Positions 1,686 through 49,544 of a stretch of 64,000 nucleotides of DNA are shown in pieces; the stretch's first letter is position 1, and each line of letters begins with the position of its first letter. The DNA lies in the NCBI GenBank assembly GCA_965237675.1, contig OZ250150.1:4896001-4960000 (forward strand), given 5' to 3'. This stretch comes from Candidatus Latescibacterota bacterium (GTDB lineage Bacteria > Latescibacterota > UBA2968 > GCA-2709665). A model generated the notes under the pieces. That model was not told where the DNA came from and did no database searches. It was given only the letters and a program-made list of their open reading frames with translations. Made by a program: the position numbers and the translations under genes.

Positions 1686-1975
1686 GGCCAACACGCCCTT
1701 TCTGAAAGAAATCGCGCCAGGCGATCGGCTTCACAATGGGTTTAGGGCGTTCACAGACCGGTCCGCGTTTGGAAAGGAGGAGGTATTGGAATCCATATCG
1801 TTAGACGTCAGGCCGTTGAATGTCTACTTGCGGACAATGATCGGCCGCAAGATTGGTTAACGCCGGTCACGGACCTGTTCACATTCGGGAAGGAGGTGAT
1901 ATTGGAAGCCATGTCGTTAAGTGTCTGGCCGCAGTACATCTACGTGAGAAACTACGGCCCGGGGCAAGTGCTGAT
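1686..1975 (+). repeat. Intergenic repeat copy 1 (near-identical to 4232-4520; shorter versions at ~9834-10005 and ~13413-13530)
   Basis: Direct comparison: ggccaacacgccctttctgaaag...ggggcaagtgctga recurs after the second WD40 gene with only a few substitutions. Confidence 0.9.
1786..1860 (+). CDS. Putative small peptide (24 aa, MESISLDVRPLNVYLRTMIGRKIG); same peptide encoded at 4332-4406
   Basis: AAGGAGG 5 nt before a TTG start; homologous to the adjacent sORF. Confidence 0.35.
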   Translation: MESISLDVRPLNVYLRTMIGRKIG

Positions 1976-1979
1976 CTGA
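1902..1979 (+). CDS. Putative small peptide (25 aa, MEAMSLSVWPQYIYVRNYGPGQVLI); homologs start at 4448, 9934 and 13455 (degenerate)
   Basis: Perfect SD AAGGAGGTGA before TTG. The stop position is not conserved between copies. Confidence 0.35.
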   Translation: MEAMSLSVWPQYIYVRNYGPGQVLI

Positions 1980-2015
1980 CACGTTCCACAGTGGGAACGG
2001 TCGAGCAATGCCGCA

Positions 2016-2167
2016 GACCAATGTTCACCAGGTCTCCACATATCGCCGTCACTCGCTCCAGGTCATAATAAAATCGCATCAGTCACAGTCTCTCCATGCC
2101 GTTTAATCAGAGTTAATCCCTCGTAATCATAGTCAATCACAGTCAATCTTAGTCCGGGGGGGTACAG
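2016..2167 (+). promoter_or_regulatory. Conserved ~150-bp gene leader, copy 1, with 10-bp phased AATC repeats
   Basis: aatcagagtt aatccctcgt aatcatagtc aatcacagtc aatcttagtc just before the G-rich RBS; homologous blocks precede 8 other sites. Confidence 0.7.
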
Positions 2168-4231
2168 ATGAAAAAGCTCACGATTTTGAGCCTCATTCTT
2201 CTTTTGACGACGGTCTTGTTTGCACAGTACGCCCACGCACAGGATTACCTTCGCTGGGGGCTGCCCGAAGGGGCCCTCGTGAGGCTGGGCAAGGGAGACG
2301 TCCGCGCCGTGGCCTGGTCGCCGGACGGCACGCGCCTGGCCGTGGGGGGCACCGTCGGCATCTGGCTATACGATGCCCGCACCGGGGTCGAAGTTTCTCT
2401 GATCACGGGCCATACGAGGAGAGTCAATACGATGGTGTTTTCGCCGGACGGGACCACACTGGCAAGCGCCGGTCACGACGGCACGGCACGGTTGTGGGAC
2501 GTGGCCACCGGACAGGAAATAGGCAGTTTCACAGGACATACGAAGAATGTCAATTCGGTGGCGTTTTCGCCGAATGGGACGACACTGGCAACCGGCGGTT
2601 ATACGGGTAACTTGCCTCCGGTGCGGCTGTGGGACGTGGCCACCGGACAGGAAATAGGCAGTTTCACAGGACATACGAAGAATGTCAATTCGGTGGCGTT
2701 CTCTCCGGACGGAACTGCGCTGGCAAGCGCCAGTAGTGACAATACAGTCCGGTTGTGGGACGTCGCTGCCGGACAGGAGAAACACACACTGACTGGGCAT
2801 ACCCGTGCGGTCAGACAGGTGACGTTTTCACCGGATGGGACCACGCTGGCAAGCGCCAGTCAGGACAGTACGGCGCGGCTGTGGGACGTGGCCACCGGGC
2901 AGGAGAAACACACCCTCACAGGACATACGTCCAGCGTCTATTGGGTGGTGTATTCACCGGATGGGACCACGCTGGCAAGCGCCAGTCTTGACAAAACCGT
3001 GCGCCTTTGGGACGTAGCCGCCGGGCAGGAAAACGTCACCATCACTGGACATACCGGTCAGGTCTATTCGGTGGTGTATTCACCGGACGGGAACACGCTG
3101 GCAAGCGCCAGTCTTGACAAGACTGTGCGGCTGTGGGACGTGGACACCGGGGAGGAAAAACACACCCTCACAGGACATACGTCCAGCGTCAGGTCGGTTG
3201 TGTATTCGCCGGACGGGACCACGCTGGCCAGCCGCAGTGGCGACAATACGGTGCGGTTGTGGGACGTGGCCACGGGACAGGAAAAAGTAAACATCACAGG
3301 ATATACGCCTTATGTCCTGTCGGTCGTGTTTTCACCCGATGGGACTACGCTGGCCAGCGCCAATAACGATGGTACGGTACCGTTGTGGGACGTGGCGAAA
3401 GGACAGATAAAAAGCACACTCGGAGGGGACGTCAGTAGGCTCAGGTCGGTGGCGTTTTCGCCCGATGGGACTATGCTGGCAAGCGGCGGTAGTGATGTGC
3501 GGCTATGGGACGTGGCCACGGGGCAGGAAATAAGCATCCTTACAGGACATACGCGGAATGTCTTGTCGGTGGCGTTTTCGCCGGATGGGACCACGCTGGC
3601 AACCGGCAGCGATGACGATACGGTGCGGTTATGGGACGTGGCCCCGGGGCAGGAAAAATACACCCTTACAGGACATACCAATGGGGTCTATGCCGTTGCG
3701 TTTTCGCCGGATGGGATGACAGTGGCAAGCGGCAGTCGTGACAATACGGTGCGGTTGTGGAACGTGACCACAGGGCACGAAAAAATCACCCTCACAGTCT
3801 CAGAACATACCAACTGGGTCGAGTCGGTGGCGTTTTCGCCGGATGGCAGGACGCTGGTAGGCGGCAGCCCCTACAACAAAATGCTGCTGTGGGTCGTGGC
3901 CACGGGTCAGGAAATAGGCACATTGACAGGACATACATGGTATCTCGTGACGTTGGCGTTTTCGCCGGACGGGATGACCCTGGCCAGCGGCAGTTACGAC
4001 GGCACGATTCTGCTGTGGGATATGTCACCTTATGTTACAACTCAACCCCTTGCTAGCGACTTCGACGGCGACGGGACCGTGGGTTTTCCCGATTTTCTGC
4101 AATTCGCGGCGCAGGTCGGGCTGAGCCAGGGAGACGCCGGGTTTGACGCGCGGTTCGATCTGAACGGCGACGGAACCGTCGAGTTCGGCGATTTTGTGAT
4201 CTTTGCACGCAGCTTCGGCCAGGGTTCATGA
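2168..4231 (+). CDS. Secreted WD40 repeat protein with C-terminal dockerin-like module
   Basis: Signal peptide (..AHA|QD), WGLPEGA..RLGKG motif, ~14 WD40 repeats, duplicated DFDGDG/DLNGDG loops. Confidence 0.95.
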   Translation: MKKLTILSLILLLTTVLFAQYAHAQDYLRWGLPEGALVRLGKGDVRAVAWSPDGTRLAVGGTVGIWLYDARTGVEVSLITGHTRRVNTMVFSPDGTTLASAGHDGTARLWDVATGQEIGSFTGHTKNVNSVAFSPNGTTLATGGYTGNLPPVRLWDVATGQEIGSFTGHTKNVNSVAFSPDGTALASASSDNTVRLWDVAAGQEKHTLTGHTRAVRQVTFSPDGTTLASASQDSTARLWDVATGQEKHTLTGHTSSVYWVVYSPDGTTLASASLDKTVRLWDVAAGQENVTITGHTGQVYSVVYSPDGNTLASASLDKTVRLWDVDTGEEKHTLTGHTSSVRSVVYSPDGTTLASRSGDNTVRLWDVATGQEKVNITGYTPYVLSVVFSPDGTTLASANNDGTVPLWDVAKGQIKSTLGGDVSRLRSVAFSPDGTMLASGGSDVRLWDVATGQEISILTGHTRNVLSVAFSPDGTTLATGSDDDTVRLWDVAPGQEKYTLTGHTNGVYAVAFSPDGMTVASGSRDNTVRLWNVTTGHEKITLTVSEHTNWVESVAFSPDGRTLVGGSPYNKMLLWVVATGQEIGTLTGHTWYLVTLAFSPDGMTLASGSYDGTILLWDMSPYVTTQPLASDFDGDGTVGFPDFLQFAAQVGLSQGDAGFDARFDLNGDGTVEFGDFVIFARSFGQGS

Positions 4232-4712
4232 GGCCAACACGCCCTTTCTGAAAGAAATCGCGCCAGGCGATCGGCTTCACAATGGGTTTAGGGCGTTCAC
4301 AGACCGGTCCGCGTTTGGAAAGGAGGAGGTATTGGAATCCATATCGTTGGACGTCAGGCCGTTGAATGTCTACTTGCGGACAATGATCGGCCGCAAGATT
4401 GGTTAACGCCGGTCACGGACCTGTTCACATTCGGGAAGGAGGTGATATTGGAAGCCATGTCGTTAAGTGTCTGGCCGCAGTACATCTACGTGAGAAACTA
4501 CGGCCCGGGGCAAGTGCTGAACGGCAAGTTGCGCAATGGGAGCGGTCGAGCAATGCCGCCGATCAATGCACACAAGGTCTCTCCATATCTACATCACTCG
4601 CACCAAGTCATGACAAAATTCACATCAATCACAGTCTCTTCATGTGGTTTAATCACAGTCCATCATCGTAATCATAGTTAATCACAGTCAATCTTAGTCC
4701 GGGGGGGTTCAG
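4232..4712 (+). repeat. Intergenic repeat copy 2 plus conserved leader copy 2 (4561-4712)
   Basis: Near identity with 1686-1975, followed by the AATCACAGT-rich leader. Confidence 0.85.
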
Positions 4713-5939
4713 ATGAAAAGGTTAACGTTTTCGAGCCTAATTCTTCTCATTGTTTCATTCTTATTTGCACAGAACAGCCACGCGCAGGACTACAATCGCT
4801 GGAGCTTGCCCGAAGGCGCCCGCATGCGTCTGGGCAAAGGAAACGTGCGCGACGTGGCCTGGTCGCCGGACCGCGCGCTCCTGGCCGCGGGGGGCACCGC
4901 CGGCATCTGGCTCTACGATGCCAGTACAGGAGCGGAAGTTTCCTTGATCACTGGACATTCGTTCAGGGTCAATGCCGTTGCATTTTCGCCCGACGGTATG
5001 ACGCTGGCAAGTGGCAGCCGGGACGATACGGTGCGGTTGTGGGATGTGGCCACCGGGAAGGAAAAAAGCATCCTCACGGGACACACCTACGATGTCGAGG
5101 CGGTGGCATTCTCGCTGGATGGGACGACGCTGGCAAGCGGCAGTCGCGACGGTACGGTGCGGCTGTGGGACGTGGCCACCGGACAGGAAATAGGCAGTTT
5201 CACAGGACATACGAAGAATGTCAATTCGGTGGCGTTCTCTCCGGACGGAACTGCGCTGGCAAGCGCCAGTAGTGACAATACAGTCCGGTTGTGGGACGTC
5301 GCTGCCGGACAGGAGAAACACACACTGACTGGGCATACCCGTGCGGTCAGACAGGTGACGTTTTCACCGGATGGGACCACGCTGGCAAGCGCCAGTCAGG
5401 ACAGTACGGCGCGGCTGTGGGACGTGGCCACCGGGCAGGAGAAACACACCCTCACAGGACATACGTCCAGCGTCTATTGGGTGGTGTATTCACCGGATGG
5501 GACGACGCTGGCAAGCGCCAGTCTTGACAAAACCGTGCGGCTGTGGAACGTGGCCGCCGGGCAGGAAAACGTCACCATCACTGGACATGCCGGTCAGGTC
5601 TATTCGGTGGTGTATTCACCGGACGGGAACACGCTGGCAAGCGCCAGTCTTGACAAGACTGTGCGGCTGTGGGACGCGGACACCGGGGAGGAAAAACACA
5701 CCCTCACAGGACATACGTCCAGCGTCAGGTCGGTTGTGTATTCGCCGGACGGGACCACGCTGGCCAGCCGCAGTGGCGACAATACGGTGCGGTTGTGGGA
5801 CGTGGCCACGGGACAGGAAAAAGTAAACATCACAGGATATACGCCTTATGTCCTGTCGGTCGTGTTTTCACCCGATGGGACTACGCTGGCCAGCGCCAAT
5901 AACGATGGTACGGTACCGTTGCCCTACGTGCCAATATAG
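4713..5939 (+). pseudogene. Secreted WD40 protein truncated by IS3; C-terminal repeats and dockerin missing
   Basis: Near-identical to the 2168 gene up to 5921 (..NNDGTVPL), then reads into the IS end (PYVPI*). Confidence 0.85.
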
Positions 5940-5999
5940 AGTGAGACAACTCCCCATCCGAGTTTAGTGTAGGTTTGAGGGCGGAGAGGAGAGCAAGAG

Positions 6000-6467
6000 A
6001 TGATGAGTATGGACAACGGCCGACAGGAGCAGGTGTCGGTAGCAGTCCCGGAGCGGAGCGAAGGGACTGCTACCGAGGCGCCCCGCCCTGACCCGGAAGT
6101 GCCAGAGAAGGCGAAGCGCCGGCGGTTCACTGCGCGGTACAAGCTTCGGGTCCTCCAAGAGGCGGAGGCGTGTCGAGAGCCGGGTCAGCTCGGCGCATTG
6201 CTGCGACGAGAGGGGCTATACTCCTCGCACCTGGCACAATGGCGTCGCGCCCGGCGTGAAGGATCGTTGAAGGCGCTTTCCAAGCAGCGCGGTCCCAAGG
6301 GCCGTCGTCGCGAACCGGTGGCCGTCGAGAACGAGCAGCTACGCAAAGAAAACGCTCGGTTGCGACGACGCCTGGAGCAGGCGCAGATGGTCCTTGAGAT
6401 CCAAAAAAAAGCCTCGGAGATCCTGGGCATCCCCCTGAACCCGCCGCCGAGCGACGACGACGCATGA
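6000..6467 (+). CDS. IS3-family transposase OrfA (HTH + leucine zipper)
   Basis: RRRFTARYKLRVLQEA..GALLRREGLYSSHLAQWRR plus coiled coil. A8G at 6403-6411, with the -1 frame open into OrfB. Confidence 0.9.
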   Translation: MMSMDNGRQEQVSVAVPERSEGTATEAPRPDPEVPEKAKRRRFTARYKLRVLQEAEACREPGQLGALLRREGLYSSHLAQWRRARREGSLKALSKQRGPKGRRREPVAVENEQLRKENARLRRRLEQAQMVLEIQKKASEILGIPLNPPPSDDDA

Positions 6468-7477
6468 AAGCCGCCGCCGAACAATTGGCCCCGACCGTCG
6501 GCTTGGCTTCGGCGTGCCGCGCGTTGGGTGTGGCTCGGGCCTCGGTCTACCGGCAGCGCAAGCCCCCTGTGTCGAGACGCCGTCCCTGTTGCCGGCCTTC
6601 GCCGCGTGCGCTGGCCCCGCCGGAGCGAGCCCACGTGCTGGACGTGCTGCACGAGGACCGCTTCGTAGACCGAGCCCCGGCGGCAGTATACGCCATCCTG
6701 CTGGAGCAAGGACGGTATCTGTGCTCGATACGAACGATGTATCGCCTGCTCCACAATGCCAAAGAGGTGCACGAGCGACGACGACAGCGGCGCCACCCGC
6801 ATCGGGAACCGCCGCGCTTGGTGGCCACCGCCCCAAACCAGGTGTGGACTTGGGACATCACGCGCCTGCCGGGTCCGCGCAAGTGGGTGACCTATCCCCT
6901 CTATGTGGTGCTGGATCTGTTCTCGCGCTACGTCGTGGCTTGGATGGTGGCCACGCGCGAGAGCGCCACCCGGGCGCAGCGGTTAATCCACAGCGCCTGC
7001 CAAAAGCAGGACATCGAGCCCGGACAACTCACCCTGCACCAGGACCGGGGTGGGCCCATGACGGCTAAGACGTTTTCGCAGTTGTTGATCGATCTGGACA
7101 TCCTGGCCAGCTACTCGAGGCCGCGCGTGTCCGATGATAATCCGTACTCGGAAAGCCAATTCAAGACGCTCAAATACGCACCGACGTACCCGGGGCGCTT
7201 TTCCAGTACTCACAACGCGCGCACCTATTTCCAGACGTTTTTCCCCTGGTACAACACCCAACACCGTCACAGTGGATTGGGGCTGCTCACACCGGACAAA
7301 GTGCACTACGGCCTGGCCGACGAGATTCAGACGGCACGACAGCACGTGCTCCACAAGGCCTTTGCAAACCATCCTGAACGCTTCGTCAACGGCCCGCCTC
7401 GACCACCACGGGTTCCTCGTGTAGTCTGGATCAATCAGCCACCAAACTCCATCGAATGCGACCGTATGCGTCATTGA
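6464..7477 (+). CDS. IS3-family transposase OrfB (rve integrase core, DDE)
   Basis: PNQVWTWDIT, LDLFSRYVVAW, HQDRGG, DNPYSESQFKTLK, WYNTQHRHSGL. Confidence 0.93.
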   Translation: MKAAAEQLAPTVGLASACRALGVARASVYRQRKPPVSRRRPCCRPSPRALAPPERAHVLDVLHEDRFVDRAPAAVYAILLEQGRYLCSIRTMYRLLHNAKEVHERRRQRRHPHREPPRLVATAPNQVWTWDITRLPGPRKWVTYPLYVVLDLFSRYVVAWMVATRESATRAQRLIHSACQKQDIEPGQLTLHQDRGGPMTAKTFSQLLIDLDILASYSRPRVSDDNPYSESQFKTLKYAPTYPGRFSSTHNARTYFQTFFPWYNTQHRHSGLGLLTPDKVHYGLADEIQTARQHVLHKAFANHPERFVNGPPRPPRVPRVVWINQPPNSIECDRMRH

Positions 7478-7517
7478 ATTCTCACGCGAGGTGTCTCATT
7501 CCTATTGACATGTTCCG

Positions 7518-7658
7518 GACCAATGTACACCGGGGCTCTCCATAAATCCATCACTCGCTCCAGGCCATTACAAAAATCACATCAATCACAGTCTCTTCAT
7601 GCGGTTTAATCACAGTTAATCCCTCGTAATCAAAGTTAATCACAGTCAGGGGGTACAG
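7518..7658 (+). promoter_or_regulatory. Conserved leader copy 3, directly abutting the IS3 right end
   Basis: gaccaatgtacacc...aatcacatcaatcacagtctcttcatgcggtttaatcacagttaatccctcgtaatc. Confidence 0.7.
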
Positions 7659-9833
7659 ATGAATAGGTCAACGATTTTGAGCCTCACACTTATTTTGACG
7701 GCTGTCTTGTCTTCACAGGACAGCCGCGCACAGGATTACACACGCTTGGGACTGCCCCACGGGGCCCTCATGCGCCTGGGTAAAGGAGAATCACGCCTGG
7801 TGGCCTGGTCGCGGGACGGCACGCGACTGGCGGTTGGGGGCACCATTGGCATCTGGGTTTACGATACCGAAACCGGGGCCGAGGTTTCCCTGCTCACGGG
7901 TCATAGATCTGGCGTGGTATCTATGGCGTTATCGCCGGATGGGACGATCCTGGCAAGCGCCAGTGGCGACTATACGGTGCGGTTGTGGGACGTGGCCACG
8001 TGGGAGGGAAAAAGCACCTTGACAGGACATACCCATCGGGTCAATTCGGTTGCATTTTCGCCCGATGGCACGACGCTGGCAAGCGCCAGTTGGGACAAAA
8101 CGGTGCGGCTGTGGGACATGGCCACAGGGCACGAGAAAAACACCCTCACAGGACATACGGGCATTGTCAATTCGGTGGCGTTTTCGCCCGATGGTCTCAC
8201 GCTGGCAAGTGGCAGTCGGGACGAAACGGTGCGGCTATGGGACGCGGCCACAGGGCACGAGAAAAACACCCTCACAGGACATGCGTCGTCTGTCACGTCC
8301 GTGGTGTTTTCGCCGGATGGGAAGACACTGGCCGGCGCCAGTGGTGATCGTACGGTGCGGTTGTGGGACGTGTCCACGGGCGAGCAAAAAGGCGCCGTGA
8401 CAGAACAAAACTGGTGGCCCGGATCGGTGGCGTTTTCGCCGGATGGGACGATGCTGGCCAGCGGCGGTTACGACAATACGGTGCGATTGTGGGACGTGGC
8501 AACAGGGCAAGTCGATCACACCCTCAAAGGACATACGGCGACAGTCAGGTCGGTAGCGTTTTCGCCGGATGGGACGATGCTGGCCAGTGGCAGTTCGGAC
8601 AATACGGTGCGGTTGTGGGACGCGGCCACGCAAAAGGAAAAAAACACCCTGACAGGACATTCGGGGACGATCAGGACGATAGCGTTTTCGCCGGACGGGA
8701 CATCGCTGGCAAGTGCCAGTTGGGACTATACGGCGCGGTTGTGGGACGTGGCTACCGGGCAGGCAAAAACCACCCTGACAGGACATTCCAGTTTTACAAG
8801 GTCGGTAGCGTTTTCGCCGGACGGGAAAACGCTGGCCAGCGGCGATTCTGACAATACGGCGCGGTTGTGGGACGTGGCCACAGGGCACGTAAAACGCACT
8901 TTCACAGGATATACCCGCGATGTCAGTTCGGTAGCGTTTTCGCCGGATGGGACCACGCTGGCCGGCGGCAGCTGGGACGGGACTGTACGGTTGTGGGACG
9001 AGGCCACAGGCCAGGTAAAACACACCCTCACAGGACATACCCGCGGGGTCGAGTCGGTGGCGTTTTCGCCGGATGGGACGACGCTGGCCAGCGGAGGTGC
9101 GGACGAGACGGTGCGGTTGTGGGACGTAGCTACGGGGCAGGAGCAAGGCACCTTGACAGGACATTTCGGTTGGGTCCTTTCGGTAGCGTTTTCACCGGAT
9201 GGGACGACACTGGCAAGCGCCAGTCGGGACGAAACCGTCCGGTTGTGGGACGTGGCTACCGGGCAGGAAAAAAGCACCCTGACAGGACATTCCAGTTTTA
9301 CCAGGTCGGTAGCGTTTTCGCCGGATGGGACCACGCTGGCGAGCTCCAGTCAGGACAGTACGGTGCGGTTGTGGAACGTGGCTACCGGGCAGGAAGAAAA
9401 CATCCTCACAGGACATACAGATTGGGTCTTTTCGGTGGTGTTTTCGCCGGATGGGACGACGCTGGCCAGCAGCAGCTGGGACGGTACGGTTCGGTTGTGG
9501 AACGCGGACACGGGGAGGGGAAAAAACACCTTCACGGCGCATACATATTGGGTCCCAACGGTTGCGTTTTCGCCGGATGGAAGCGCGCTGGCAAGCGGCG
9601 GCAGCGCGATTTTATTATGGGATGTCTCACCGTATGTCGCGCCTCAATCCCTTGTTGCCGACTTCGACGGCGACGGCACTGTGGGTTTCCCCGACTTCCT
9701 GCAGTTTGCGTCGCAGTTCGGGCAGAGCCAGGGTGACGCCGGATTTGACGCGCGTTTCGATCTGGACAGCGACGGCACCGTCGGGTTCAACGATTTCGTG
9801 ATCTTCGCACGCAGCTTCGGCCGGGGTACGTGA
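7659..9833 (+). CDS. Secreted WD40 repeat protein with C-terminal dockerin-like module
   Basis: Signal peptide, LGLPHGA..RLGKG, ~15 WD40 repeats, DFDGDG/DLDSDG tail. Confidence 0.95.
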   Translation: MNRSTILSLTLILTAVLSSQDSRAQDYTRLGLPHGALMRLGKGESRLVAWSRDGTRLAVGGTIGIWVYDTETGAEVSLLTGHRSGVVSMALSPDGTILASASGDYTVRLWDVATWEGKSTLTGHTHRVNSVAFSPDGTTLASASWDKTVRLWDMATGHEKNTLTGHTGIVNSVAFSPDGLTLASGSRDETVRLWDAATGHEKNTLTGHASSVTSVVFSPDGKTLAGASGDRTVRLWDVSTGEQKGAVTEQNWWPGSVAFSPDGTMLASGGYDNTVRLWDVATGQVDHTLKGHTATVRSVAFSPDGTMLASGSSDNTVRLWDAATQKEKNTLTGHSGTIRTIAFSPDGTSLASASWDYTARLWDVATGQAKTTLTGHSSFTRSVAFSPDGKTLASGDSDNTARLWDVATGHVKRTFTGYTRDVSSVAFSPDGTTLAGGSWDGTVRLWDEATGQVKHTLTGHTRGVESVAFSPDGTTLASGGADETVRLWDVATGQEQGTLTGHFGWVLSVAFSPDGTTLASASRDETVRLWDVATGQEKSTLTGHSSFTRSVAFSPDGTTLASSSQDSTVRLWNVATGQEENILTGHTDWVFSVVFSPDGTTLASSSWDGTVRLWNADTGRGKNTFTAHTYWVPTVAFSPDGSALASGGSAILLWDVSPYVAPQSLVADFDGDGTVGFPDFLQFASQFGQSQGDAGFDARFDLDSDGTVGFNDFVIFARSFGRGT

Positions 9834-10046
9834 GGCGAACCCGCCCTGTCAGAAACAGGTCGCGCCAGGCGATCGGCTGAACATGTGTTTGACGCCGTTC
9901 ATGGACCTGCACGCGTTCGGAAAGGAGGTGATATTGGAATCCATGTCGTTAAGTGTCGGACCGCAGTACATCTACGTGAGAAACTACGGCCCGGGGCAAG
10001 TGCTGAACGGCAAGTTGCGCAATGGGAGCGGTCGAGCAATGCCGCC

Positions 10047-10199
10047 GACCAACGTACACCAGGTCTCTTCATTTCGCCTTCACTCGCTCAGGTCATTTCA
10101 AGAATCACATCAATCACAGTCTCTCCATTTGGGTTTAATCACAGTCCATCATCGTAATCATAGTTAATCACAGTCAATCTTAGTCCGGGGGGTATTCAG
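10047..10199 (+). promoter_or_regulatory. Conserved leader copy 4
   Basis: Homologous to 4561-4712. Confidence 0.7.
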
Positions 10200-12248
10200 A
10201 TGATCAAGTTAACGTTTTCGAGCCTCATGCTCTTTTTTACGACTGTCTTGTTTGCACAGAACATCCGCGCACAGGACTACAATCGCTGGAGCTTGCCCGA
10301 AGGAGCGCTCGTGCGGCTGGGCAAAGGAGACGTGCGCGACGTCACCTGGTCGCAGGACGGCACGCGCCTGGCCGTGGGGGGCACCGCCGGCATCTGGCTC
10401 TACGATGCCCAGACAGGTGATGAAATTTCGCTGCTCACAGGCCATACGAGAAGAGTCAATCATGTGGTGTATTCGACGGATGGGTCGATGCTGGCCAGCG
10501 CCGGTCACGATGGTACCATGCGGTTGTGGGACGCGGCCACCGGACAGGAAAAAAGCACCATCGAAGCCCATCGCGGGTCTGTCACGTCGGTGGCGTTTTC
10601 ACCGGATGGAACGACGGTGGCAAGCGTCGGTTATACGAACGAGGTGCGGTTGTGGGACGTGGCCACAGGGCAGGAGAAAAGCACTCTGAGCGGGCATACC
10701 CGGAGGCTCAGGTCGGTGGTGTTCTCGCCGGATGGGACGACATTGGCAAGCGCCAGTGAAGACAGTACGGCGCGGCTGTGGGACGTGGCCACAGGGCAGG
10801 CAAAACACACCCTGACGGGACATAGGTGGTTTGTCAATTCTGTGGCGTTTTCGCCGGATGGGACGACATTGGCAAGCGCCAGCAATGACAGTACGGTGCG
10901 GTTGTGGGACGTGGCCACAGGGCAGGTAAGACACACCCTCACAGGACATCCCCATTGGGTCCGTTCGGTGGTGTTTTCGCCCGACGGGACCACGCTGGCA
11001 AGCGGCAGTACAGACCGTACGGTGTGGTTGTGGGATATGGCCACCCGACAGAAGAAAGGCATCCTCACAGGCCACACAGGTGGGGTCATCTCGGTGGCGT
11101 TTTCGCCGGATGGGATGACCCTGGCAAGCGGCAGCTCGGACAATACGGTGCGGGTGTGGGACGTCGCAACGGGGCAGGAAAAAGGCACTATCACGGGACA
11201 CACGCCTTTTGTCTGGTCGGTGGCGTTTTCGCCGGATGGGACCACGGTGGCAGGCGCCAATAGCGACGGTACGATACGACTGTGGGACGTGACCACCTGG
11301 CAGAAAAAAAGCACACTCGGAGGGGACATGCGCAGGCTCAGGTCGGTGGCGTTTTCGCCCGATGGGACGATGCTGGCAAGCGGCGGCACTGATGTGCGGT
11401 TGTGGGACGTGGCGACGGGGGAGGGAAAAAGCACTCTCACAGGACATACCCGTGCTGTCGGTTCGGTGGTGTTTTCGCCGGATGGGACCACCCTGGCAAG
11501 CGGCAGTGATGATGATACGGTGCGGTTGTGGGACGTGGCCACAGGGCAGGTAAAACGCGCCCTGACAGGACATACCCATGATGTCAGGTCGGTGGCGTTT
11601 TCGCCGGATGGGACCACCCTGGCAAGCGGCAGTTACGACCACACGGTGCGGTTGTGGGACGTGGCCACCGGACAGGAACAAAGCACCCTCACAGGACATA
11701 CGTCCTGGGTCACTTCCGTGGTGTTTTCGCCGGATGGGATGACAGTGGCAAGCGGCAGTCGTGACAATACGGTGCGGTTGTGGAACGTGACCACAGGGCG
11801 GGAAAAACACACCCTCACAGGACATGAGCGGAATGTCGAGTCGGTGGCGTTCTCACCTGATGGGAGAACGCTGGTAAGCGCCAGTCACGACAACAAAATG
11901 CTGCTTTGGGACGTGGACACCTGGCAGGAAATAGGCGTTCTTACAGGACATACGTGGATAATCGCTTCGGTGGCGTTCTCGCCGGATGGGCAGATCCTGG
12001 CAAGCTGCAGTTACGACGGCACGATTCTACTGTGGAATGTCTCCCCGTATGTCGCACCTCAATCCCTTGTTGCCGACTTCGACGGCGACGGGACCGTGGG
12101 TTTTCCCGACTTCTTGCAGTTTGCGTCGCAGTTCGGTCAGAGCCAGGACGACGCCGGATTTGACGCGCGCTTCGATCTGGACAGCGACGGCACCGTCGGG
12201 TTCAACGATTTCGTGATCTTCACACGCAGCTTCGGCAACGGTACGTGA
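10200..12248 (+). CDS. Secreted WD40 repeat protein with C-terminal dockerin-like module
   Basis: Signal peptide and ~14 WD40 repeats; tail nearly identical to that of the 7659 gene. Confidence 0.95.
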   Translation: MIKLTFSSLMLFFTTVLFAQNIRAQDYNRWSLPEGALVRLGKGDVRDVTWSQDGTRLAVGGTAGIWLYDAQTGDEISLLTGHTRRVNHVVYSTDGSMLASAGHDGTMRLWDAATGQEKSTIEAHRGSVTSVAFSPDGTTVASVGYTNEVRLWDVATGQEKSTLSGHTRRLRSVVFSPDGTTLASASEDSTARLWDVATGQAKHTLTGHRWFVNSVAFSPDGTTLASASNDSTVRLWDVATGQVRHTLTGHPHWVRSVVFSPDGTTLASGSTDRTVWLWDMATRQKKGILTGHTGGVISVAFSPDGMTLASGSSDNTVRVWDVATGQEKGTITGHTPFVWSVAFSPDGTTVAGANSDGTIRLWDVTTWQKKSTLGGDMRRLRSVAFSPDGTMLASGGTDVRLWDVATGEGKSTLTGHTRAVGSVVFSPDGTTLASGSDDDTVRLWDVATGQVKRALTGHTHDVRSVAFSPDGTTLASGSYDHTVRLWDVATGQEQSTLTGHTSWVTSVVFSPDGMTVASGSRDNTVRLWNVTTGREKHTLTGHERNVESVAFSPDGRTLVSASHDNKMLLWDVDTWQEIGVLTGHTWIIASVAFSPDGQILASCSYDGTILLWNVSPYVAPQSLVADFDGDGTVGFPDFLQFASQFGQSQDDAGFDARFDLDSDGTVGFNDFVIFTRSFGNGT

Positions 12249-12620: not shown

Positions 12621-13364
12621 CTATTCAACGGCCCCGATCCGGTAGCCGACCCCCGGCTCGTTGAAGATGTAGGTGGGGTTGCCCGCGTCGTCTCCCAACT
12701 TGCGTCTCAGGCTCTTTACCGCCGAGCGCAATGGCCTCGTATCACCGTCGCTTCTCTTGCGCCATACCCTTTGCAACAGATGATCGCGCGTCATGATCAC
12801 GCCAGCATTCAACGAGAGTTCCACCAGCAGCCGATACTCGAAAACCGTCAGCCCTACCGTCCGGTCGTCAACGGCAACTCTCCGCCTGGCGTAGTCAATG
12901 GTCAATCGTCCCATCACAAAGGGTTCTTCCGGCTCCTTCTGATCGGACGGCGTCGCCTTGCGCAGCGCCGCCCGGATCCTGGCCACCAGTTCCGTAGGCG
13001 AAAAGGGCTTGACCACGTAGTCGGCGGCGCCGGCTTCGAACGCCCGCGCAATCGCATCGTCGTGGCCGTATGCGGAAAGAAACACGACCGGCACCTCTGC
13101 GTCCTTGAAAATGGCCTGCATAATCTCGATGCCGTCGGTCCCCGGCAATACGAGGTCCAGCAAAACCAATTGGGGGCAGTGCTCTTCCAGAAGCCTGGGC
13201 ACCTCGTCCGGGTCGTCTGTGGCCACCAGCGCGTAGCCGGCATTCGATAGAGCTTCCCGTACATTCCGCAACGTCTGCGGGTCGTCGTCCACAACCAGGA
13301 TGGGCGTTCGCCCCGGCCGGCTCCTTCTTACACCGCCTGCGTCCGAATCTGCCGCTCCGTCGCG
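12621..13364 (-). pseudogene. 5'-truncated copy of the hybrid kinase/regulator; only linker, REC and OmpR-type wHTH remain (ORF 12621-13292 could still be expressed)
   Basis: Highly similar to the C-terminus of 29018-31405, including the linker DSDAGGVRRSRPGRTPILVVDDD upstream of the called start. Homology ends at a WD40-tail remnant. Confidence 0.8.
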
Positions 13365-16777: not shown

Positions 16778-19700
16778 ATGAAAACGTCTTCGTCGTTCGG
16801 CCTCGTTCTTCTGTCAATCGGTGTCCTATCAGCACAGGATGCACGTACACAGGACCATACTCGCTGGGGCCTGCCCGAAGGGGCCGTCTCACGACTGGGC
16901 AAAGGAAACATCGGCACTGGCGACCGCGCGATTGCCTATTCGCCGGACGGCAGGCGGATCGCTGTGGCCGGTAATATAGGGATCTGGCTCTACGATGCCC
17001 ACACCGGGGCCGAATTGGCCCTGCTCACGGGTCATGCGTCTTCGGTAACTTCGGTGGCGTTTTCGCCCGACGGAACCACACTGGCAAGTGGCAGCTGGAA
17101 GGAGATTCGGTTGTGGGACGTGGACACCGGGCAGATAAAATACACGCTCACAGAAGGTATTTCGCGTGTGACATCCGTGGTGTTTTCACCGGATGGAACC
17201 GTCCTGGCAGGCGCCGGCGGATTGCGGATTCGTTTGTGGGACGTGGACAGCGGCCAGGGAAAACACACTTTCACAGGACATGCTGATGTGGTCCGTTCGG
17301 TGGCGTTTTCGCCCGACGGAAACACCCTGGCCAGCGCCGGCGGGTCACGGATCCTGTTGACGGACATACATACGGCTCAGGAAAAACGCATCCTCACGGG
17401 ACATACTGATGCGGTCCGTTCGGTGGCATTTTCGCCCGACGGAAACACCCTGGCCAGCGCCGGCGCCGACAATACAGTGCGATTTTGGGACGTGGACACC
17501 GGGCAGATTAATCACACGCTACGAGGACACTGGCTGCCTGTTACTTCGGTGGCGTTTTCGCCCGATGGAAATACCCTGGCAAGTGGTGGTGGAGACAACA
17601 CCGTGCGGTTGTGGGACGCCCGCACCGCACAGGAGACAGACTCCCTCTCAGAACACACGTCCGCAGTGACTTCGGTGGCGTTTTCGCCCGATGGAAACAC
17701 CCTGGCAAGCGCCGGTGGTTCGGGGATCCGGTTGTGGGACTTGGGCACAAGACGGGTAAGACACACCCTTGCGGAACATCTGGTAAACGTTTCTTCGGTG
17801 GCGTTTTCGCCTGATGGAAATACCCTGGCAAGTGGTGGTGAAAACCCGGTGTTGTGGGACCTGGCCACTGGCCAGGTGAAATCCCGCCTGGTTGGACATA
17901 TATCGTCTGTTACTTCGGTTGCGTTTTCGCCTGATGGGAACACCCTGGCAAGCGCCAGTACGGACACGACGGTGCGTTTGTGGGACGTGCATACCGGGCA
18001 GGTAAAACACACCCTGCGAGGGCACAGGTGGAATGTCAGATCGGTGGCGTTTTCGCCCGATGGGAACACGCTGGCGAGCGGAAGTGACGACCGCACGATA
18101 CGGCTATGGGACGTCGCCACAGGCACGGAAAAACATGTACTGACATTACAATGGGGGTCTGTTACTTCGGTGGTGTTTTCTCCCGGTGGGAACACGCTGG
18201 CAAGCGGAAATGACAACCGTACGATACGGCTATGGGACGTCGCCACAGGCACGGAAAAACATGTACTAACGGGCCATGGAAGCGACGTCTCTTCACTGGC
18301 GTTCTCACCCGACGGAAGGACACTGGCCAGTGGGGGCGGGAGGGCGATTCGGTTGTGGAACGTGGACACCGGCGAGTTGGAATACACACTCACGGAACAG
18401 ACGTCCTCGGTCCATTCGATCGCGTTTTCGTCGAATGGGAAGACCCTGGCAAGCGGCAGTTTCGACAATCAGGTGCGGTTGTGGGACGTGGACACGGGCA
18501 AGGAAACAGACACGCTCACAGGACATAGAGGCAGCGTGCTTTCGGTATCGTTTTCGCCCGATGGAACCACCCTGGCAAGCGGCAGCGTCGACGGTACGAT
18601 TCTCGTCTGGCAAAAGTCCGAGTGGGCGGGGGCCGATCCCGACGGACCCACGGACGGGTTAACACCGGCCGGAATCTCACGATGGGGATTGCCCGAAGGC
18701 GCTATCGCCCGCTTCGGCAAAGGCGGGATTGGCAGTGGCGACCGGGCGGCTGCCTGGTCGCCGGACGGCGCGCTGCTGGCCGCGGCCAGCAGCATCGGTA
18801 TCTGGCTCTACGATGCCCACACCGGGGTCGAAGTCGCCCTGCTCGCGGACCATAATTATTGGGTCAATGCGGTAGCGTTTTCGCCTGATGGAAATACCCT
18901 GGCAAGTGGTGGTGAAAACGCGGTGTTGTGGGACCTGGCCACTGGCCAGGTGATATACCGCCTGGATGGACATATATCGTCTGTTACTTCGGTTACGTTT
19001 TCGCCCGATGGACGTACGCTGGCCAGCGGGAGCAGGGACAATACGATTCGGTTGTGGGACGTGACCACGGGACAGGAAAAACACACCCTCGCAGGGCATT
19101 CGGATCCGGTCCGATCGGTGGCCTTTTCGCCCGATGGACGTACGCTGGCCAGCGGGAGCAGGGACGCAACGGTGGGGTTGTGGAACGTCTTCACGGGACA
19201 GGAAAAACACACCCTTACAGGACATACGTCTTCGGTTATTTCGGTGGCTTTTTCGCCTGATGGAAGCACGCTGGCCAGTGGAGGCGGCGACGCCGTGTTG
19301 TGGGAAGTGGCCACCGGCGAGAAAAAACACATTCTCGAACATCGTCTGGGTGTCACTTCGGTCGCGTACTCCCCCGATGGACGTACACTGGCCAGTGCAT
19401 CCTTTAGCGACACCCCCGGAGAAAATACGATACGGTTGTGGGACACGGCCACCGGGCGGAAGAAATCCAACTTCACGGGACCTACGTGGGAAGTCAATTC
19501 GGTGGCGTTCTCGCCCGATGGACGCACACTGGTCAGTGCCAGTCAGTCCGACAGGATTCGGCTGTGGGACGTGGCCACCGTACGGGAGAAAAACGCCATC
19601 ACTGGACATGGGTCTTTCGTTACTTCGGTGGCGTTGTCACCCGACGGGAACACCGTGGCCTACAGCGATAACAGCCCCACGGTGCGGGTGTGGGACGTGG

Positions 19701-21277
19701 CCACCGGTAGGGGCAAAAACATCCTCACAGGACATACGGCTCCGGTGAATTCGGTGGCGTTCTCGCCCGATGGAACCACCCTGGCGAGCGCCAGCTGGGA
19801 GGAGATTCGCTTGTGGGACATGGCCATAGGACAAGTAAAAAACATCCTCACAGGGCATACGTACTCGGTCAATGCAGTGGCGTTTTCGCCCAATGGGATC
19901 ACTTTAGCCAGCGCCGGTCGGGACGGGACCGTACGTTTGTGGGACGTGGCCACAGGACAGGCAAAAAACATCCTCACAGGCCATTCGAATGATGTCCTTT
20001 CGTTGGCGTTCTCACGCGATGGACGCACACTGGCAAGCGGCGGTTATGATAGGAAAATCCTGCTTTGGGACGTTGTCACCGGGCGAAAAAACGCTCTTCC
20101 GGAACATCAGAGTGCGGTCCGTTCCTTGGCCTTTTCCCCCGATGGAAGCACGCTGGCCAGCGCAAGCGGCGGGAATATGGTGTTGTTGCGGAACCTTGAC
20201 ACCGGGCAGGAAAGACACACCCTCACGGGACATTCCTGGTACGTTATCTCGGTGTCTTTCTCGCCCGATGGAACCACCCTGGCCAGCGCCGCCAAGGACG
20301 ACGAGACCGTGCGCTTGTGGGACACGGCCACTGGAGAGGAGAAAAACACCCTTACAGGACATAGGAGGGGTGTCTCTTCGGTGGTGTTTTCGCCCGGTGG
20401 AACCACACTGGCAAGCGGCAGTGAAGACGGTACAGTCCTCCTTTGGGATACATCGGTTAGTGGGAGGACCGATCCGGACAAACCCACGGACGTGGAAAAG
20501 CCGGGTGAGCTCAGCGGGGTCCGGCCGGATGAACTCGTCGGAAAGTGGAAAGCGGTCATATCCGGCAGCGGAGCGGATACGACCCGTGTCTTCGAGTTCC
20601 TCGCCGACGGCCGATTCACCGGTAGCGAAAAGGCCGCTGCCCACGAATCCATGAAACAGTTTCTTATTCTGGAATGGGGGGCCGACCCGGGACGGGTCGA
20701 GTACGTGGCAGACTCGCTGGCGACGAAAGCGTCCAGGTTCTACGATGCACTCGTTGCTGACAAGCGGGTGTCTACCACCGAGATGACAGGAACCTGGGGC
20801 GTGGACGGTAACGTCATCCAAGCCGTCGTCGACAGCTTTTCGCTTTCGATTAACGCCCTTCATGGGAACGACGTATTCGATTTTTATGAAGAAATCATTC
20901 CGCTGGTCGTCCCGGCCGAGAATGCCGGGTTGGCAGGCTTTGCCCTACTGGCTTTCTCTCGCCTTCAACAGAGTCTGGATACCCTCGTTGAAGAGCGCGT
21001 GGTCTTCAAAATTGGCAGGTATACCGTCGAGAACGAAAATCTGGTCGTAGTTCAGGATCAGAACCCGGTTCGATATACGCGTGTGTCGGAAACGACAACG
21101 CCCGACTTCGACGGCGACGGGTCTGTGGGATTTTCCGACTTTTTATTGTTTGTGGGGCAGTTCGGGCTGCGCCAGGGTGATGCGGGGTATGACGGGCGTT
21201 ACGACCTGGACGGTGACGGTGCCATCGGGTTCAGCGACTTTCTGATCTTTGTCGGCAGCTTCGGCAATAGCGCCTGA
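16778..21277 (+). CDS. Secreted tandem double-WD40-module protein with an extra lipocalin-like region and C-terminal dockerin-like module
   Basis: Two WGLPEGA..R(L/F)GKG starts (~16865 and ~18683), each followed by ~14 WD40 repeats; ELVGKWK domain; DFDGDG/DLDGDG tail. Confidence 0.93.
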   Translation: MKTSSSFGLVLLSIGVLSAQDARTQDHTRWGLPEGAVSRLGKGNIGTGDRAIAYSPDGRRIAVAGNIGIWLYDAHTGAELALLTGHASSVTSVAFSPDGTTLASGSWKEIRLWDVDTGQIKYTLTEGISRVTSVVFSPDGTVLAGAGGLRIRLWDVDSGQGKHTFTGHADVVRSVAFSPDGNTLASAGGSRILLTDIHTAQEKRILTGHTDAVRSVAFSPDGNTLASAGADNTVRFWDVDTGQINHTLRGHWLPVTSVAFSPDGNTLASGGGDNTVRLWDARTAQETDSLSEHTSAVTSVAFSPDGNTLASAGGSGIRLWDLGTRRVRHTLAEHLVNVSSVAFSPDGNTLASGGENPVLWDLATGQVKSRLVGHISSVTSVAFSPDGNTLASASTDTTVRLWDVHTGQVKHTLRGHRWNVRSVAFSPDGNTLASGSDDRTIRLWDVATGTEKHVLTLQWGSVTSVVFSPGGNTLASGNDNRTIRLWDVATGTEKHVLTGHGSDVSSLAFSPDGRTLASGGGRAIRLWNVDTGELEYTLTEQTSSVHSIAFSSNGKTLASGSFDNQVRLWDVDTGKETDTLTGHRGSVLSVSFSPDGTTLASGSVDGTILVWQKSEWAGADPDGPTDGLTPAGISRWGLPEGAIARFGKGGIGSGDRAAAWSPDGALLAAASSIGIWLYDAHTGVEVALLADHNYWVNAVAFSPDGNTLASGGENAVLWDLATGQVIYRLDGHISSVTSVTFSPDGRTLASGSRDNTIRLWDVTTGQEKHTLAGHSDPVRSVAFSPDGRTLASGSRDATVGLWNVFTGQEKHTLTGHTSSVISVAFSPDGSTLASGGGDAVLWEVATGEKKHILEHRLGVTSVAYSPDGRTLASASFSDTPGENTIRLWDTATGRKKSNFTGPTWEVNSVAFSPDGRTLVSASQSDRIRLWDVATVREKNAITGHGSFVTSVALSPDGNTVAYSDNSPTVRVWDVATGRGKNILTGHTAPVNSVAFSPDGTTLASASWEEIRLWDMAIGQVKNILTGHTYSVNAVAFSPNGITLASAGRDGTVRLWDVATGQAKNILTGHSNDVLSLAFSRDGRTLASGGYDRKILLWDVVTGRKNALPEHQSAVRSLAFSPDGSTLASASGGNMVLLRNLDTGQERHTLTGHSWYVISVSFSPDGTTLASAAKDDETVRLWDTATGEEKNTLTGHRRGVSSVVFSPGGTTLASGSEDGTVLLWDTSVSGRTDPDKPTDVEKPGELSGVRPDELVGKWKAVISGSGADTTRVFEFLADGRFTGSEKAAAHESMKQFLILEWGADPGRVEYVADSLATKASRFYDALVADKRVSTTEMTGTWGVDGNVIQAVVDSFSLSINALHGNDVFDFYEEIIPLVVPAENAGLAGFALLAFSRLQQSLDTLVEERVVFKIGRYTVENENLVVVQDQNPVRYTRVSETTTPDFDGDGSVGFSDFLLFVGQFGLRQGDAGYDGRYDLDGDGAIGFSDFLIFVGSFGNSA

Positions 21278-21398: not shown

Positions 21399-24300
21399 AT
21401 GACGAAGACAATGTTGTATCTCGCGCTCGGATGGATGTTCATCGTGTGCGACGCTTCTGCCCGACCTGGTGACAGCGTGCTCGCCCTCAGCGTGTCCGCG
21501 TTGCTCCTCGATACCCGAATCGAAAGTCCGGCGGCGAACAACGATGTTCGTGCGGTGGCCCCAGGTCAACCCGGGGATACAATTCGCTTTCAGCTTTTCG
21601 CGCCGGACGAGGCGGGCGTGCGGATCAATGGATGGACGGTTGAACTCTCGCTGCCGGGCAGGACGTTCGACAGCTACGTCGGCGGCGTCTCCGGTACGGC
21701 ATGGACGGGTGCGGATCTTATCTTGAGCGACGAGTCAGGCAGGCCGTCGCTGTCCATGCTTTCCGTCTCGGCGGTGGCAGTGCCGAGTACCGGATACCTG
21801 GGCGAAATCACACTGACGGTGAGCCGTGCCCTGCCGTTGGATGCCACACTAATCGTTCGCTCGGCATCGCTGGGAAACGTGGGCGGGCAGTGGCAACTGG
21901 ACGTTTCGGACGCGGTGATCTCGTTCGACCTTGCGGAGTGTCCGGGCGACGTCAACCATAGCGGGCGCGTCGACTTCGCCGATTTTCTGTTGTTCGTGGC
22001 GGCGTTTGGCGCGTCTACAGGCGCCTCTAACTATAACGCGCTGATCGATCTGGACGGCAGCGGCGGGATTGATTTCGCCGATTTTCTGTTGTTCGTGCCT
22101 TTTTTCGGGACCACCTGCGAAGTGCCGCCTATCTCCGGCGGCGGCGGCGGCGGTACGGTTGCGGACCGCGATATCCTCGTGGCGCTGTATAACGCGACGA
22201 ACGGCCTCAACTGGTCGGACAGGACGAACTGGTCGAGCGATCGGCCTTTGGGAGACTGGCACGGCGTGACCGTCGACACCGATCGACGGGTGACACGGTT
22301 GAATCTTTCGGGTAACGGATTACGTGGCGAGCTACCGTCAGATCTCGGCAACCTGAACAACCTTCAAAGGCTGGAACTGAACAATAACGGGCTAACAGGT
22401 GCGATCCCGCCATCGTTGGGCGATCTGAGCAACCTGCAGTTGCTGTATCTCCACGTGAACGGGTTGACGGGGGAGATCCCGTCGTCGCTGGGCAATCTGG
22501 GCGACCTGCAGTGGTTGTATCTCTATACCAATCGGTTGTCAGGTGAGATCCCGCCGTCCCTGGGCAATTTGGGCAGTCTCGGCTACCTTGACGTCCACAA
22601 CAACGGGTTGCGCGGCGGAGTCCCCGTATCGCTGGGCAACTTGAGCAACCTGCAAGCACTTAGTCTGTCCGAAAACCCGTTAACGGGCGCCTTGCCGGTT
22701 AGCCTGACGGGTCTTGAAAATCTCACCAACCTGTATCTGGATGAAACGGAGTTGTGCGCGCCGACAGACGCGGCTTTCCAGGCGTGGCTGCAGGGTATTG
22801 CGAACACGAGCGGCGTGGTCAACTGCGGCGCGGGCGGAACCGTGGACAGGGAAGCGCTGGTGGCGCTGTACATCGCCACGGATGGACCGAACTGGGCGAA
22901 CAAGACCAACTGGCTCAGCACCAGACCGCATGGTCAATGGCACGGCGTCACCGTCAACGACAGCGGGCGGGTGACGGAGTTACGCCTTTCCAACAATCAA
23001 TTAAACGGAAAGATCCCTGAGGAATTGGGTAATCTGCCCGACTTGAAGCGGCTGTATTTGAATTACAACCCGGACCTTTCCGGGCCGCTGCCCGGTTCGA
23101 TGACCGCCCTCAATTCACTGGAGGTCCTGAACCTTTCGGGCACGCAGTTATGCGCACCCATGACGGCCGCGTACCGAACGTGGTTGAAGGGCATTGCAGA
23201 CACAACCGGTGTCATCAGCTGCGGCGTGTCGGACAGAGAAGCGCTGGTGGCGCTGTACAACGCCACGGACGGACCGCATTGGGCGAACAAAACCAACTGG
23301 CTCAGCGCCAGACCGCTCGGCGAATGGCACGGCGTTACGGTTGACGGCATTGGACGGGTCACGAGACTGAACCTCTACAACAATCGGATGAGCGGGGACA
23401 TCCCGGCGGAACTGGGCAACCTGACCGGCCTGGAATGGCTTTACCTCAACAACAACCTGTTGAGCGGGGACATCCCGGCGGAACTGGGACGCCTGGCCAG
23501 CCTGCGGCACCTTTACCTGCACACGAACCAGTTCCGCGGCCAGATCCCCGCGGCGCTGGGCAGTCTGGCCGGCCTGGAACGGCTGTTCCTGTCCAATAAC
23601 CAGTTGAGCGGCGGGATCCCGGCGGAACTGGGCAACCTGACCGGCCTGCAGTGGCTGTACCTCGACAACAACGCCGATCTTTCCGGTTCGCTGCCAGGTT
23701 CGATGACCGGCATGGATTCGCTCAGAGTCCTCAGCATGTCTGGCACGAAGTTATGTGCGCCGGTGGACGCCGCGTTCCAGACGTGGCTCCAGGGCATCGT
23801 AACCAGGACCGGCGTTGTCAACTGTGTTGAGACAACCGCAGACTACGATCAGGACGATGACGGGCTTATCGAGGTCGGCAGCCTCGCGCAGTTGGATGCC
23901 ATCCGCTGGGATCTGGACGGTAACGGGCAGGCTGACAACGCTGCCGCCGGATACGCAGCCGCCTTTCCCGACGCCGCCGCGGCAATGGGCTGCCCCACTG
24001 CCGGCTGTATTGGCTACGAACTGGTTGCCGATCTGAACTTCGATACCAATAATAGCGGCGGCGCGGACGCGGGCGACGATTACTGGAACAACGGCCGGGG
24101 TTGGGCGCCCATCGGAAGCGGCGATGGCGGAAGCCACGCATTCATGTTCAGAGCCACGTTCGAGGGCAATTCCCACGTCATATCCGGCCTCTTTATCAAT
24201 CACCCCGGAGAACGGCAGGTTGGCTTCTTCGGTTATCTGGTCGAAGATGCCGAGATACGGAACCTGGGGCTGGAAGACGTCTCTGTTACCAGTGGTGGAC

Positions 24301-49408: not shown

Positions 49409-49544
49409 GTCGCCGGTGCGGTGTCTGCCTGTCCGCATCAGCGAGGCAGGCGCAAAGACAACGACTACACGTATTAAAGCCCTTTGTCTACACGACCCTT
49501 TGCGGCGTGCTTTGGACTTTACAACAAGGAGGAAACTTCGGCCA

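Follow-up and report, generated by a model that had tools for sequence, protein, structure and literature searches.

Several described systems resemble the locus that we analyse here, a tandem array of WD40 genes that reaches into a 64,000-nucleotide stretch of a Candidatus Latescibacterota genome (assembly GCA_965237675.1, contig OZ250150.1, positions 4,896,001 to 4,960,000; hereafter the window, to which all coordinates refer unless they carry the prefix G000:C1). The first is the HNWD family of Podospora anserina (het-d, het-e). As in our array, four variable codons flank a conserved residue in the d-a loop and the b-c turn of the repeat, the protein forms a double propeller, and parts of repeats are exchanged (available text of PMC1805685 and PMC12222747). 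In contrast to HNWD, the array proteins are secreted and carry neither a NACHT nor a HET domain. Their blades are about 70% alike and not, as that text has it for HNWD, >80-100%; they are orthologous by position across species, with no detectable genome-wide homogenisation. The ratio of nonsynonymous to synonymous rates (dN/dS, or omega) at the top face is about 0.5 on recent branches. The array works partly like HET-D/E and stands outside that family.

Highly repetitive prokaryotic WD40 proteins (PMC5587647; 2YMU) share more of the architecture: recently duplicated repeats, a scaffold with DHSW tetrads, diverse hotspots and a 14-blade double propeller. The pattern of variable hotspots itself is already known, because the available text of PMC5587647 describes hotspot sites as the exception in otherwise conserved, highly repetitive WD40 repeats. 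Our locus differs from the proteins described there in being an accordion array of several genes, which have signal peptides and dockerin-like tails, are separated by repeated spacers and show mosaic exchange. The main text of that paper uses neither the term "positive selection" nor the term "signal peptide".

Cellulosomes offer a third parallel. Here as there, a two-loop dockerin-like module sits on many secreted proteins, and cohesin-like proteins are often found beside dockerin-like genes. Unlike in cellulosomes, the cargo consists of binding or repeat proteins, most anchors have one cohesin-like domain plus an FlgD/Por-type tail, and the array genes score at or below the Pfam cut-offs; docking is a prediction. 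Cohesin and dockerin are also used outside cellulosomes.

Finally, eukaryote-like WD40 and leucine-rich repeat (LRR) proteins are abundant in the sponge symbionts among Latescibacterota and Poribacteria, and many are exported (available text of PMC8163846, PMC3909097 and PMC12993501). The available text counts domains, and the poribacterial WD40 proteins that they describe end in a Por-type sorting domain, unlike the array proteins. Neither "dockerin" nor "cohesin" occurs in the available portions of PMC12993501 and PMC3909097. Our search found no literature on this array, nor any on WD40 proteins with a dockerin tag in the phylum; the supplements of PMC5587647 might list related proteins. Leads from a protein atlas (propeller plus dockerin; poribacterial WD40 clusters) all scored below 0.9 and are not used as evidence.

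We propose that the locus is a copy-number-variable tandem array of secreted, non-enzymatic binders, each composed of a Sec-type signal peptide, two WD40 propellers with 14-15 blades in all and a C-terminal dockerin-like module, whose top faces were selected early and then mostly fixed. We consider this reading probable. Four co-oriented WD40 genes (A to D) with a period of 126 bp lie at 2168-12248, where the original prediction, made from the letters of the window alone, had placed WD40 repeats in 126-bp units. They carry 14, 9, 15 and 14 blade anchors, respectively, and are the final four genes of an 11-gene tandem array (G000:C1:4882803-4908248). The array begins about 13 kb before the window, which that prediction overlooked. 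Seven of its genes are full-length; the others are a single-propeller gene, a gene with three anchors only, a frameshifted gene and a truncated one. The features of the locus are as follows.

1-1685, + strand: 3' part of the preceding array gene (WD40 blades and dockerin-like tail; gene start at G000:C1:4895637)
1686-2167, + strand: repeated intergenic spacer, 93% identical to 4232-4712
2168-4231, + strand: array gene A, 687 amino acids; signal peptide, 14 WD40 blades, dockerin-like tail at 4040-4228
4232-4712, + strand: repeated intergenic spacer
4713-5939, + strand: array gene B, truncated, 408 amino acids, tail lost; a chimera, with 5155-5921 copied in-register from A
5921-7517, + strand: IS3-type element with open reading frames (ORFs) at 6000-6467 and 6464-7477; a 99.6% copy lies at G000:C1:3052250
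7518-7658, + strand: spacer remnant, the final 140 bp of the repeated spacer
7659-9833, + strand: array gene C, 724 amino acids; signal peptide at about 7659-7730, 15 WD40 blades in two propellers, dockerin-like tail
9642-9830, + strand: dockerin-like tail of gene C, two calcium-binding-type loops (DxDGDG), under the Pfam dockerin cut-off
9834-10199, + strand: repeated intergenic spacer, 87-90% identical to the other full-length spacers
10200-12248, + strand: array gene D, 682 amino acids; signal peptide, 14 blades, dockerin-like tail at 12057-12245
41739-42548, + strand: candidate anchor with signal peptide, cohesin-like domain and FlgD/Por-type tail; putative partner, outside the array

All four genes score above the PF00400 cut-off. 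Signal peptide, blades and a 57-residue tail account for the entire protein, and only propeller families occur among the best 25 Pfam matches; neither the domain layout nor these matches contain a NACHT or N-terminal effector domain. Judged by eye and by pattern, without a predictor, 53 of 54 parsed genes start with a basic and hydrophobic leader that has x-x-Ala before Gln, which bears out the predicted secretion. The IS3-type element, likewise overlooked before, interrupts gene B, whose tail is gone together with most of the next spacer. The spacers of the array are 85-93% identical, exceeding the likeness of most array genes. In those at 1686-2167, 4232-4712 and 9834-10199, long AAGGAGG(TGAT) runs, one or two per spacer, lie well ahead of the true start codons. 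Promoter-like or terminator-like sites within 1686-4712 occur at chance level only.

To describe the variable residues we number the 42-residue blade T1 G2 H3 x4 x5 x6 V7 x8 S9 ... S23 x24 D25 x26 T27 ... W31. The window set contains canonical 42-residue internal blades only (40 of 52 anchors), 35 of which are non-redundant once five near-copies are dropped. A second set comprises 479 canonical blades from 65 ORFs in 12 genomes. Among the 35 blades, entropy is highest at positions 5, 6, 8, 24 and 26 (2.9-3.6 bits), and most scaffold positions stay below 1.6 bits; position 40, which is no top-face site, reaches 2.6 bits. The loop residues that the original prediction quoted for gene C are all present. 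Its statement that loops differ in nearly every unit agrees with these entropy peaks but goes too far, since SSFTR, SWDGT and SRDET each occur twice within gene C. The scaffold is conserved, but to call its DNA almost invariant is an overstatement: the two motifs that it quoted are exact in 6 and 7 of 40 blades, and blades in the window share on average 73% of their DNA and 64% of their protein sequence.

The variable positions are top-face positions. In the HET unit the positively selected codons 7, 9, 25 and 27 flank the conserved codons 8 and 26 in the d-a loop and the b-c turn, on the top face (available text of PMC1805685). By this flanking pattern they equal positions 6, 8, 24 and 26 here, which supports the predicted match. 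The general WD40 top-face hotspots R1-2, R1 and D-1 equal positions 6, 8 and 24, by the rules in the available text of PMC3419727 and the strand boundaries of our model. Arg, Trp, Tyr and Asn abound at the top-face sites, and the text of PMC3419727 gives these residues as typical of binding hotspots. The DHSW tetrad is complete in 357 of the 479 blades. A structure model of mature gene C (6-sequence alignment, mean predicted local distance difference test score, pLDDT, 80; predicted template modelling score 0.51) shows 15 four-stranded blades, not the 2 x 7 that had been expected, and a break of low confidence at about residues 331-350. Position 6 lies in the loop before strand a, position 8 at the start of strand a and positions 24-26 in the b-c turn. 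The best match in both fold and sequence is 2YMU. The variable residues are thus predicted to share one propeller face, which follows from the topology of the model rather than from coordinates.

A uniform scaffold with variable tips could arise in a HET-D/E-like repertoire, in which concerted evolution continually homogenises the repeats and ongoing diversifying selection acts on the top-face codons. This is what the original prediction had assumed, and the same four codon positions do vary in both systems (available text of PMC1805685). Such homogenisation, however, is not supported. Within the four window genes blade identity averages 0.73-0.74, with a maximum of 0.81-0.87 per gene, whereas HET repeats are >80-100% identical within a gene (available text of PMC12222747). 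Among the 479 blades identity averages 0.70 for blades of one gene and 0.69 for blades of different genomes. The nearest neighbour of a blade lies in another genome in 382 cases, in another gene of the same genome in 76 and in the same gene in 21 (random expectation: 410, 62 and 7). For gene C the nearest blade is the same blade of an orthologue in 12 of 13 cases, and for gene D in 10 of 11. Silent variants show no enrichment within their own genome (-0.003 over 249 sites).

The scaffold is better explained by recent common origin, because four-fold silent sites are 0.58 identical among the 479 blades, compared to 0.32 at saturation, and retain codons other than the commonest of the genome, for example, ACA and GGA. 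By these silent sites, the blades descend from a recent common unit. Concerted evolution does not appear to be the present mode; local conversion does occur.

If the top face were hypervariable today, as had been suggested, orthologous blades should differ there. In 108 cross-genome blade pairs, picked on the scaffold alone, top-face identity is 0.73-0.82, versus 0.09-0.13 between blades within genes. Hence, judged from these alignments, residues 6, 8, 24 and 26 differ between blades and are largely retained at the same blade position in orthologues.

How, then, did the blades of one gene become so different? Given the silent divergence, a between-blade top-face identity of 0.26-0.33 would be expected under neutrality, much more than the 0.09-0.13 observed. 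In a star model the observed divergence needs an omega near 3. On deep branches top-face dN exceeds the unit-wide silent rate by a factor of 1.3-1.7 (2dL, twice the log-likelihood difference, of 34-85). Silent identity at V7 and D25, which lie between the variable codons, is 0.74 and 0.84 and speaks against protected conversion tracts. We considered old, homogenised repeats with protected top-face codons and disfavour them, as the silent sites of V7 and D25 are conserved. Early positive selection during the blade radiation is likely, not proven.

In the alternative, positive selection played no part: the repeats expanded recently, the exposed residues of the top face were free to drift, and some of them became constrained later. 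Per-site omega is about 1 at positions 6, 8, 24 and 26 (458 blades), deep omega is indistinguishable from 1 when the silent rate is free, and the side positions 1, 17, 34 and 40 are equally fast between orthologues, all of which would fit drift. Drift does not explain why between-blade identity is well below the neutral expectation next to conserved silent sites. Nor does it explain why the side positions, which change as readily between orthologues, have for the most part diverged far less from blade to blade, or why Arg, Trp, Tyr and Asn abound at the variable sites, as in binding hotspots (available text of PMC3419727). We regard drift alone as rather improbable.

The variable codons could also result from targeted mutagenesis by a diversity-generating retroelement. 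The genome contains four reverse-transcriptase matches, and codons at position 40 nearly always end in C. However, the nearest reverse transcriptase is more than 90 kb from the array, there is no adenine bias (A is involved in 91 of 196 top-face differences, compared to 373 of 679 in the scaffold), and the variable sites are conserved across species. Three of the reverse transcriptases resemble group II intron enzymes in their motifs. This explanation is highly improbable.

On recent branches the top face appears to be mostly under constraint. Our gene-level tests drew on 48 full-length genes grouped by similarity, 28 of them in close pairs and 35 in clades. In 14 close gene pairs dN is 0.14 and dS 0.28 at the top face, and 0.065 and 0.26 in the scaffold; side positions 1, 17, 34 and 40 evolve at roughly the top-face rate or above it. 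Recent branches of the full-sequence blade tree give a top-face omega of 0.38-0.51, significantly below 1 (2dL 31-40 against omega = 1). These values come from a refit for that tree, after a first two-class codon fit had not converged (negative likelihood ratios). In gene C and its five homologues top-face omega is 0.54; of the 53 sites, 47% are frozen, and a class with omega >1 brings no improvement for this clade (2dL 1.0).

Evidence for ongoing diversification, the second half of the HET-D/E-like explanation, comes from pooling. Across nine clades with 440 top-face codons, 28% are frozen and 16% evolve at omega 2-3 (2dL 23.1); the maximum under the null was 5.3 in 40 simulations, and the side positions give 0.6. 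Multi-base changes are commoner at top-face codons (32/75 versus 34/134, p = 0.013), and gene D has an omega of 1.7 against its counterpart in the congener G008, a comparison of two sequences. Yet 20.1 of the 23.1 come from two mosaic clades that mix paralogues and contain none of genes A to D; 4.7 remains without them. The null simulations, moreover, were run without recombination. In two further samples, the long contig pieces listed cover 36 and 22 top-face codons with zero differences, although contigs hide rare alleles. Among the variant rows listed, those at 9042-9053 match a paralogous blade upstream of the window and are read as cross-mapping, and those at 2388-2429 and 9516-9547 may reflect paralogues or related strains.

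The data give weak support to present-day diversifying selection at a minority of sites. As an account of the array, ongoing HET-like diversification largely fails, and the sequences are consistent with a slowly renewed binder set rather than antibody-like variation now. We therefore consider a HET-D/E-like repertoire unlikely. Of the diversifying selection that had been predicted, the excess divergence between blades stands and selection between close homologues, with a top-face dN/dS of about 0.5, does not. The per-codon check proposed at the time gives a similarly divided answer: no single top-face site is significantly above 1, and the rates are about 0.5 on recent branches, 1.1-1.7 on deep branches and about 3 in the star model.

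Several results weigh against early selection followed by fixation. When the silent rate is free at top-face codons, deep omega falls to 1.09-1.25 and is not significant (2dL 0.6-2.9). The estimate of early selection assumes a star tree and clock-like silent sites. In the per-site test on 458 blades, omega did not rise significantly above 1 at any top-face site on either tree. For recent branches, a scaffold-only tree gave an omega of 1.06-1.33 from an unconverged optimiser, and the refit covered the full-sequence tree only. Choosing orthologues by similarity favours conserved pairs. Finally, 21 of 479 blades have their nearest neighbour in the same gene where 7.3 are expected, which indicates some intragenic conversion.

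Whole genes, on the other hand, come and go. We searched 14 congeners and fetched arrays from 11 of them; G001 and G004 gave short matches only, and G005 a fragment at a contig end. In 10 of the 11 the array sits behind the same flanking genes, and in G007 an array-type gene sits in a different neighbourhood. There are 11 array genes in G002 and in G008, nine in G011, six in G009 and in G013, two in G006 and in G010, one or two in G003 and one fragment each in G012 and G014. Broken array members are common across the congeners. The genes undergo birth-and-death evolution. Homologues of gene C, about 85% identical, occur in four congeners.

Array genes are also mosaics. Gene B is a chimera: over 5155-5921 it repeats gene A in register, and the two differ at 7 of 767 bp. 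On a smaller scale, 21 blade pairs are alike in one half and not in the other, and otherwise distant blades share identical d-a loop codons in 19 cases where 5.1 are expected. Across species, gene D and its G008 counterpart differ at a proportion of 0.07 of silent sites, compared to 0.30 for the flanking genes, and 10650-11100 contains only 3 differences in 450 bases. Exact tracts of 191-205 bp are common to array genes of different species (G008_4396394 and G013_1778734; G010_1824806 and both G013_1783122 and G013_1785753). Gene segments are thus probably exchanged between congeneric species. Present-day change consists of gene gain and loss, in-register recombination and probable interspecies exchange.

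The tail of the array proteins suggests how they may be displayed. In an alignment of 61 tails, its 57 residues with two loops form two calcium-loop-helix repeats. A profile of the tail matches 2Y3N_B, a chain of a cellulosomal enzyme, over its whole length (E 6e-10); we take this chain to be a dockerin. The other solved structures listed are mostly calmodulins, matched in part. The profile finds the module on 97 ORFs genome-wide, 28 of them WD40 proteins, and the Pfam dockerin family PF00404 passes its cut-off at 27 of the 28 listed places elsewhere in the genome. In G000:C1 it is also carried, N-terminally or C-terminally, by LRR proteins and others. The constant dockerin that the original prediction described is present as a dockerin-like tail and is not fully constant, as array tails form two subtypes that differ in the second loop-helix. 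In the second subtype, represented by L017 (G000:C1:4887367-4892919) and the arrays of congeners, this loop-helix varies (SRDWWI, YPDWSI, YGDWTI). Clades of this subtype carry most of the omega >1 signal.

Candidate partners are present. Eight cohesin-like ORFs are related to 41739-42548, each with an FlgD-type tail, and the cohesin family PF00963 passes at six places in the genome. Of the six cohesin-like genes that stand alone, four have a dockerin-like gene no more than 400 bp away, compared to 8% of random places within 1 kb, and two large proteins hold both kinds of module. The family with a single cohesin-like domain and an FlgD/Por tail has several members per genome (41739-42548; G000:C1:1695704, 5035758 and 5582400), which often adjoin large dockerin-like genes. 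These profile matches suggest that the tail docks onto cohesin-like anchors with calcium, and the cohesin-like genes point to surface display of the propellers. Four values speak against docking. PF00404 scores 17.8, 17.8 and 22.0 bits in genes C, D and A, below the cut-off of 22.9; the tails of A, C and D score higher as EF-hands than as PF00404; the tail of gene C has a pLDDT below 50 in the structure model; and the candidate cohesin at 41739-42548 reaches 20.1 bits, with a cut-off of 24.1.

Putting early selection, fixation and display together, we propose the following mechanism. Blades would have multiplied from one unit, and selection would have pushed their top-face residues apart as blades and genes multiplied. 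The genes would have duplicated in tandem, aided by near-identical spacers. Each gene would have acquired a ligand, which froze much of its top face as the determinant of specificity. Today a new specificity may come about when genes duplicate, recombine in register, swap half-blades or take in foreign alleles, and an old one may disappear through insertion or frameshift. The proteins are exported and would then probably be plugged, via the calcium-dependent tail, onto cohesin-like anchors on or near the cell surface, where the propellers would be displayed alongside about 90 other dockerin-tagged proteins. The ligands may be proteins or glycoproteins of the host or of neighbouring cells, and the most likely role would be adhesion to, or management of, an invertebrate host. 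A habitat in invertebrates is suggested by analogy with the symbionts described in the available text of PMC8163846.

A broader reading extends this to whole communities. A cellulosome-like cohesin-dockerin plug would hang about 100 non-enzymatic modules on the surface. The WD40 array would be the binder library among them, with selected top faces, recombination between paralogues and trade among co-resident species, and would amount to a community-level antibody-like repertoire against host or microbial ligands. We offer this reading tentatively and think it doubtful.

Several genes beyond the array deserve mention. Two more WD40 genes, at 16778-21277 and 44401-46593, encode secreted proteins that share the cap and the tail of the array; in the former there are 25 blade anchors and two caps, with an unrelated insert ahead of the tail. 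Fragments of another WD40 gene at 39389-41234 flank a transposase-like ORF (39906-40586) directly before the cohesin-like gene. Large secreted LRR proteins at 21399-28796, 33643-38121 and 49380-52859 carry a dockerin-like module near the N-terminus. Together, a surface-protein island lies downstream of the array; in the congeners fetched it does not adjoin the array. A response-regulator ORF at 12621-13292 resembles the 3' end of a hybrid sensor kinase at 29018-31405. The unusual long ORFs in 53052-58873 and 60492-63044 putatively encode a phosphatase/nuclease-like protein, one that has FN3 and LRR-like parts after a helix-hairpin-helix-like start, and a heme-peroxidase-like one. Viral contigs scanned with the protein at 46704-48179, which is unrelated to the array, gave no match; this result does not bear on the array.

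Repeat proteins of invertebrate symbionts have usually been merely counted, and their ligands have hitherto been obscure. With the array, ligand binding can be tested on a defined set of proteins. Where orthologous propellers keep a frozen top face, their ligands should be conserved as well, and clades that change fast should follow variable ligands. The array also shows that a conserved scaffold with variable tips in one gene does not alone prove ongoing diversifying selection; orthologues are needed. If the tail does bind cohesin-like anchors, cohesin-dockerin display would extend to binder libraries in an uncultured phylum.

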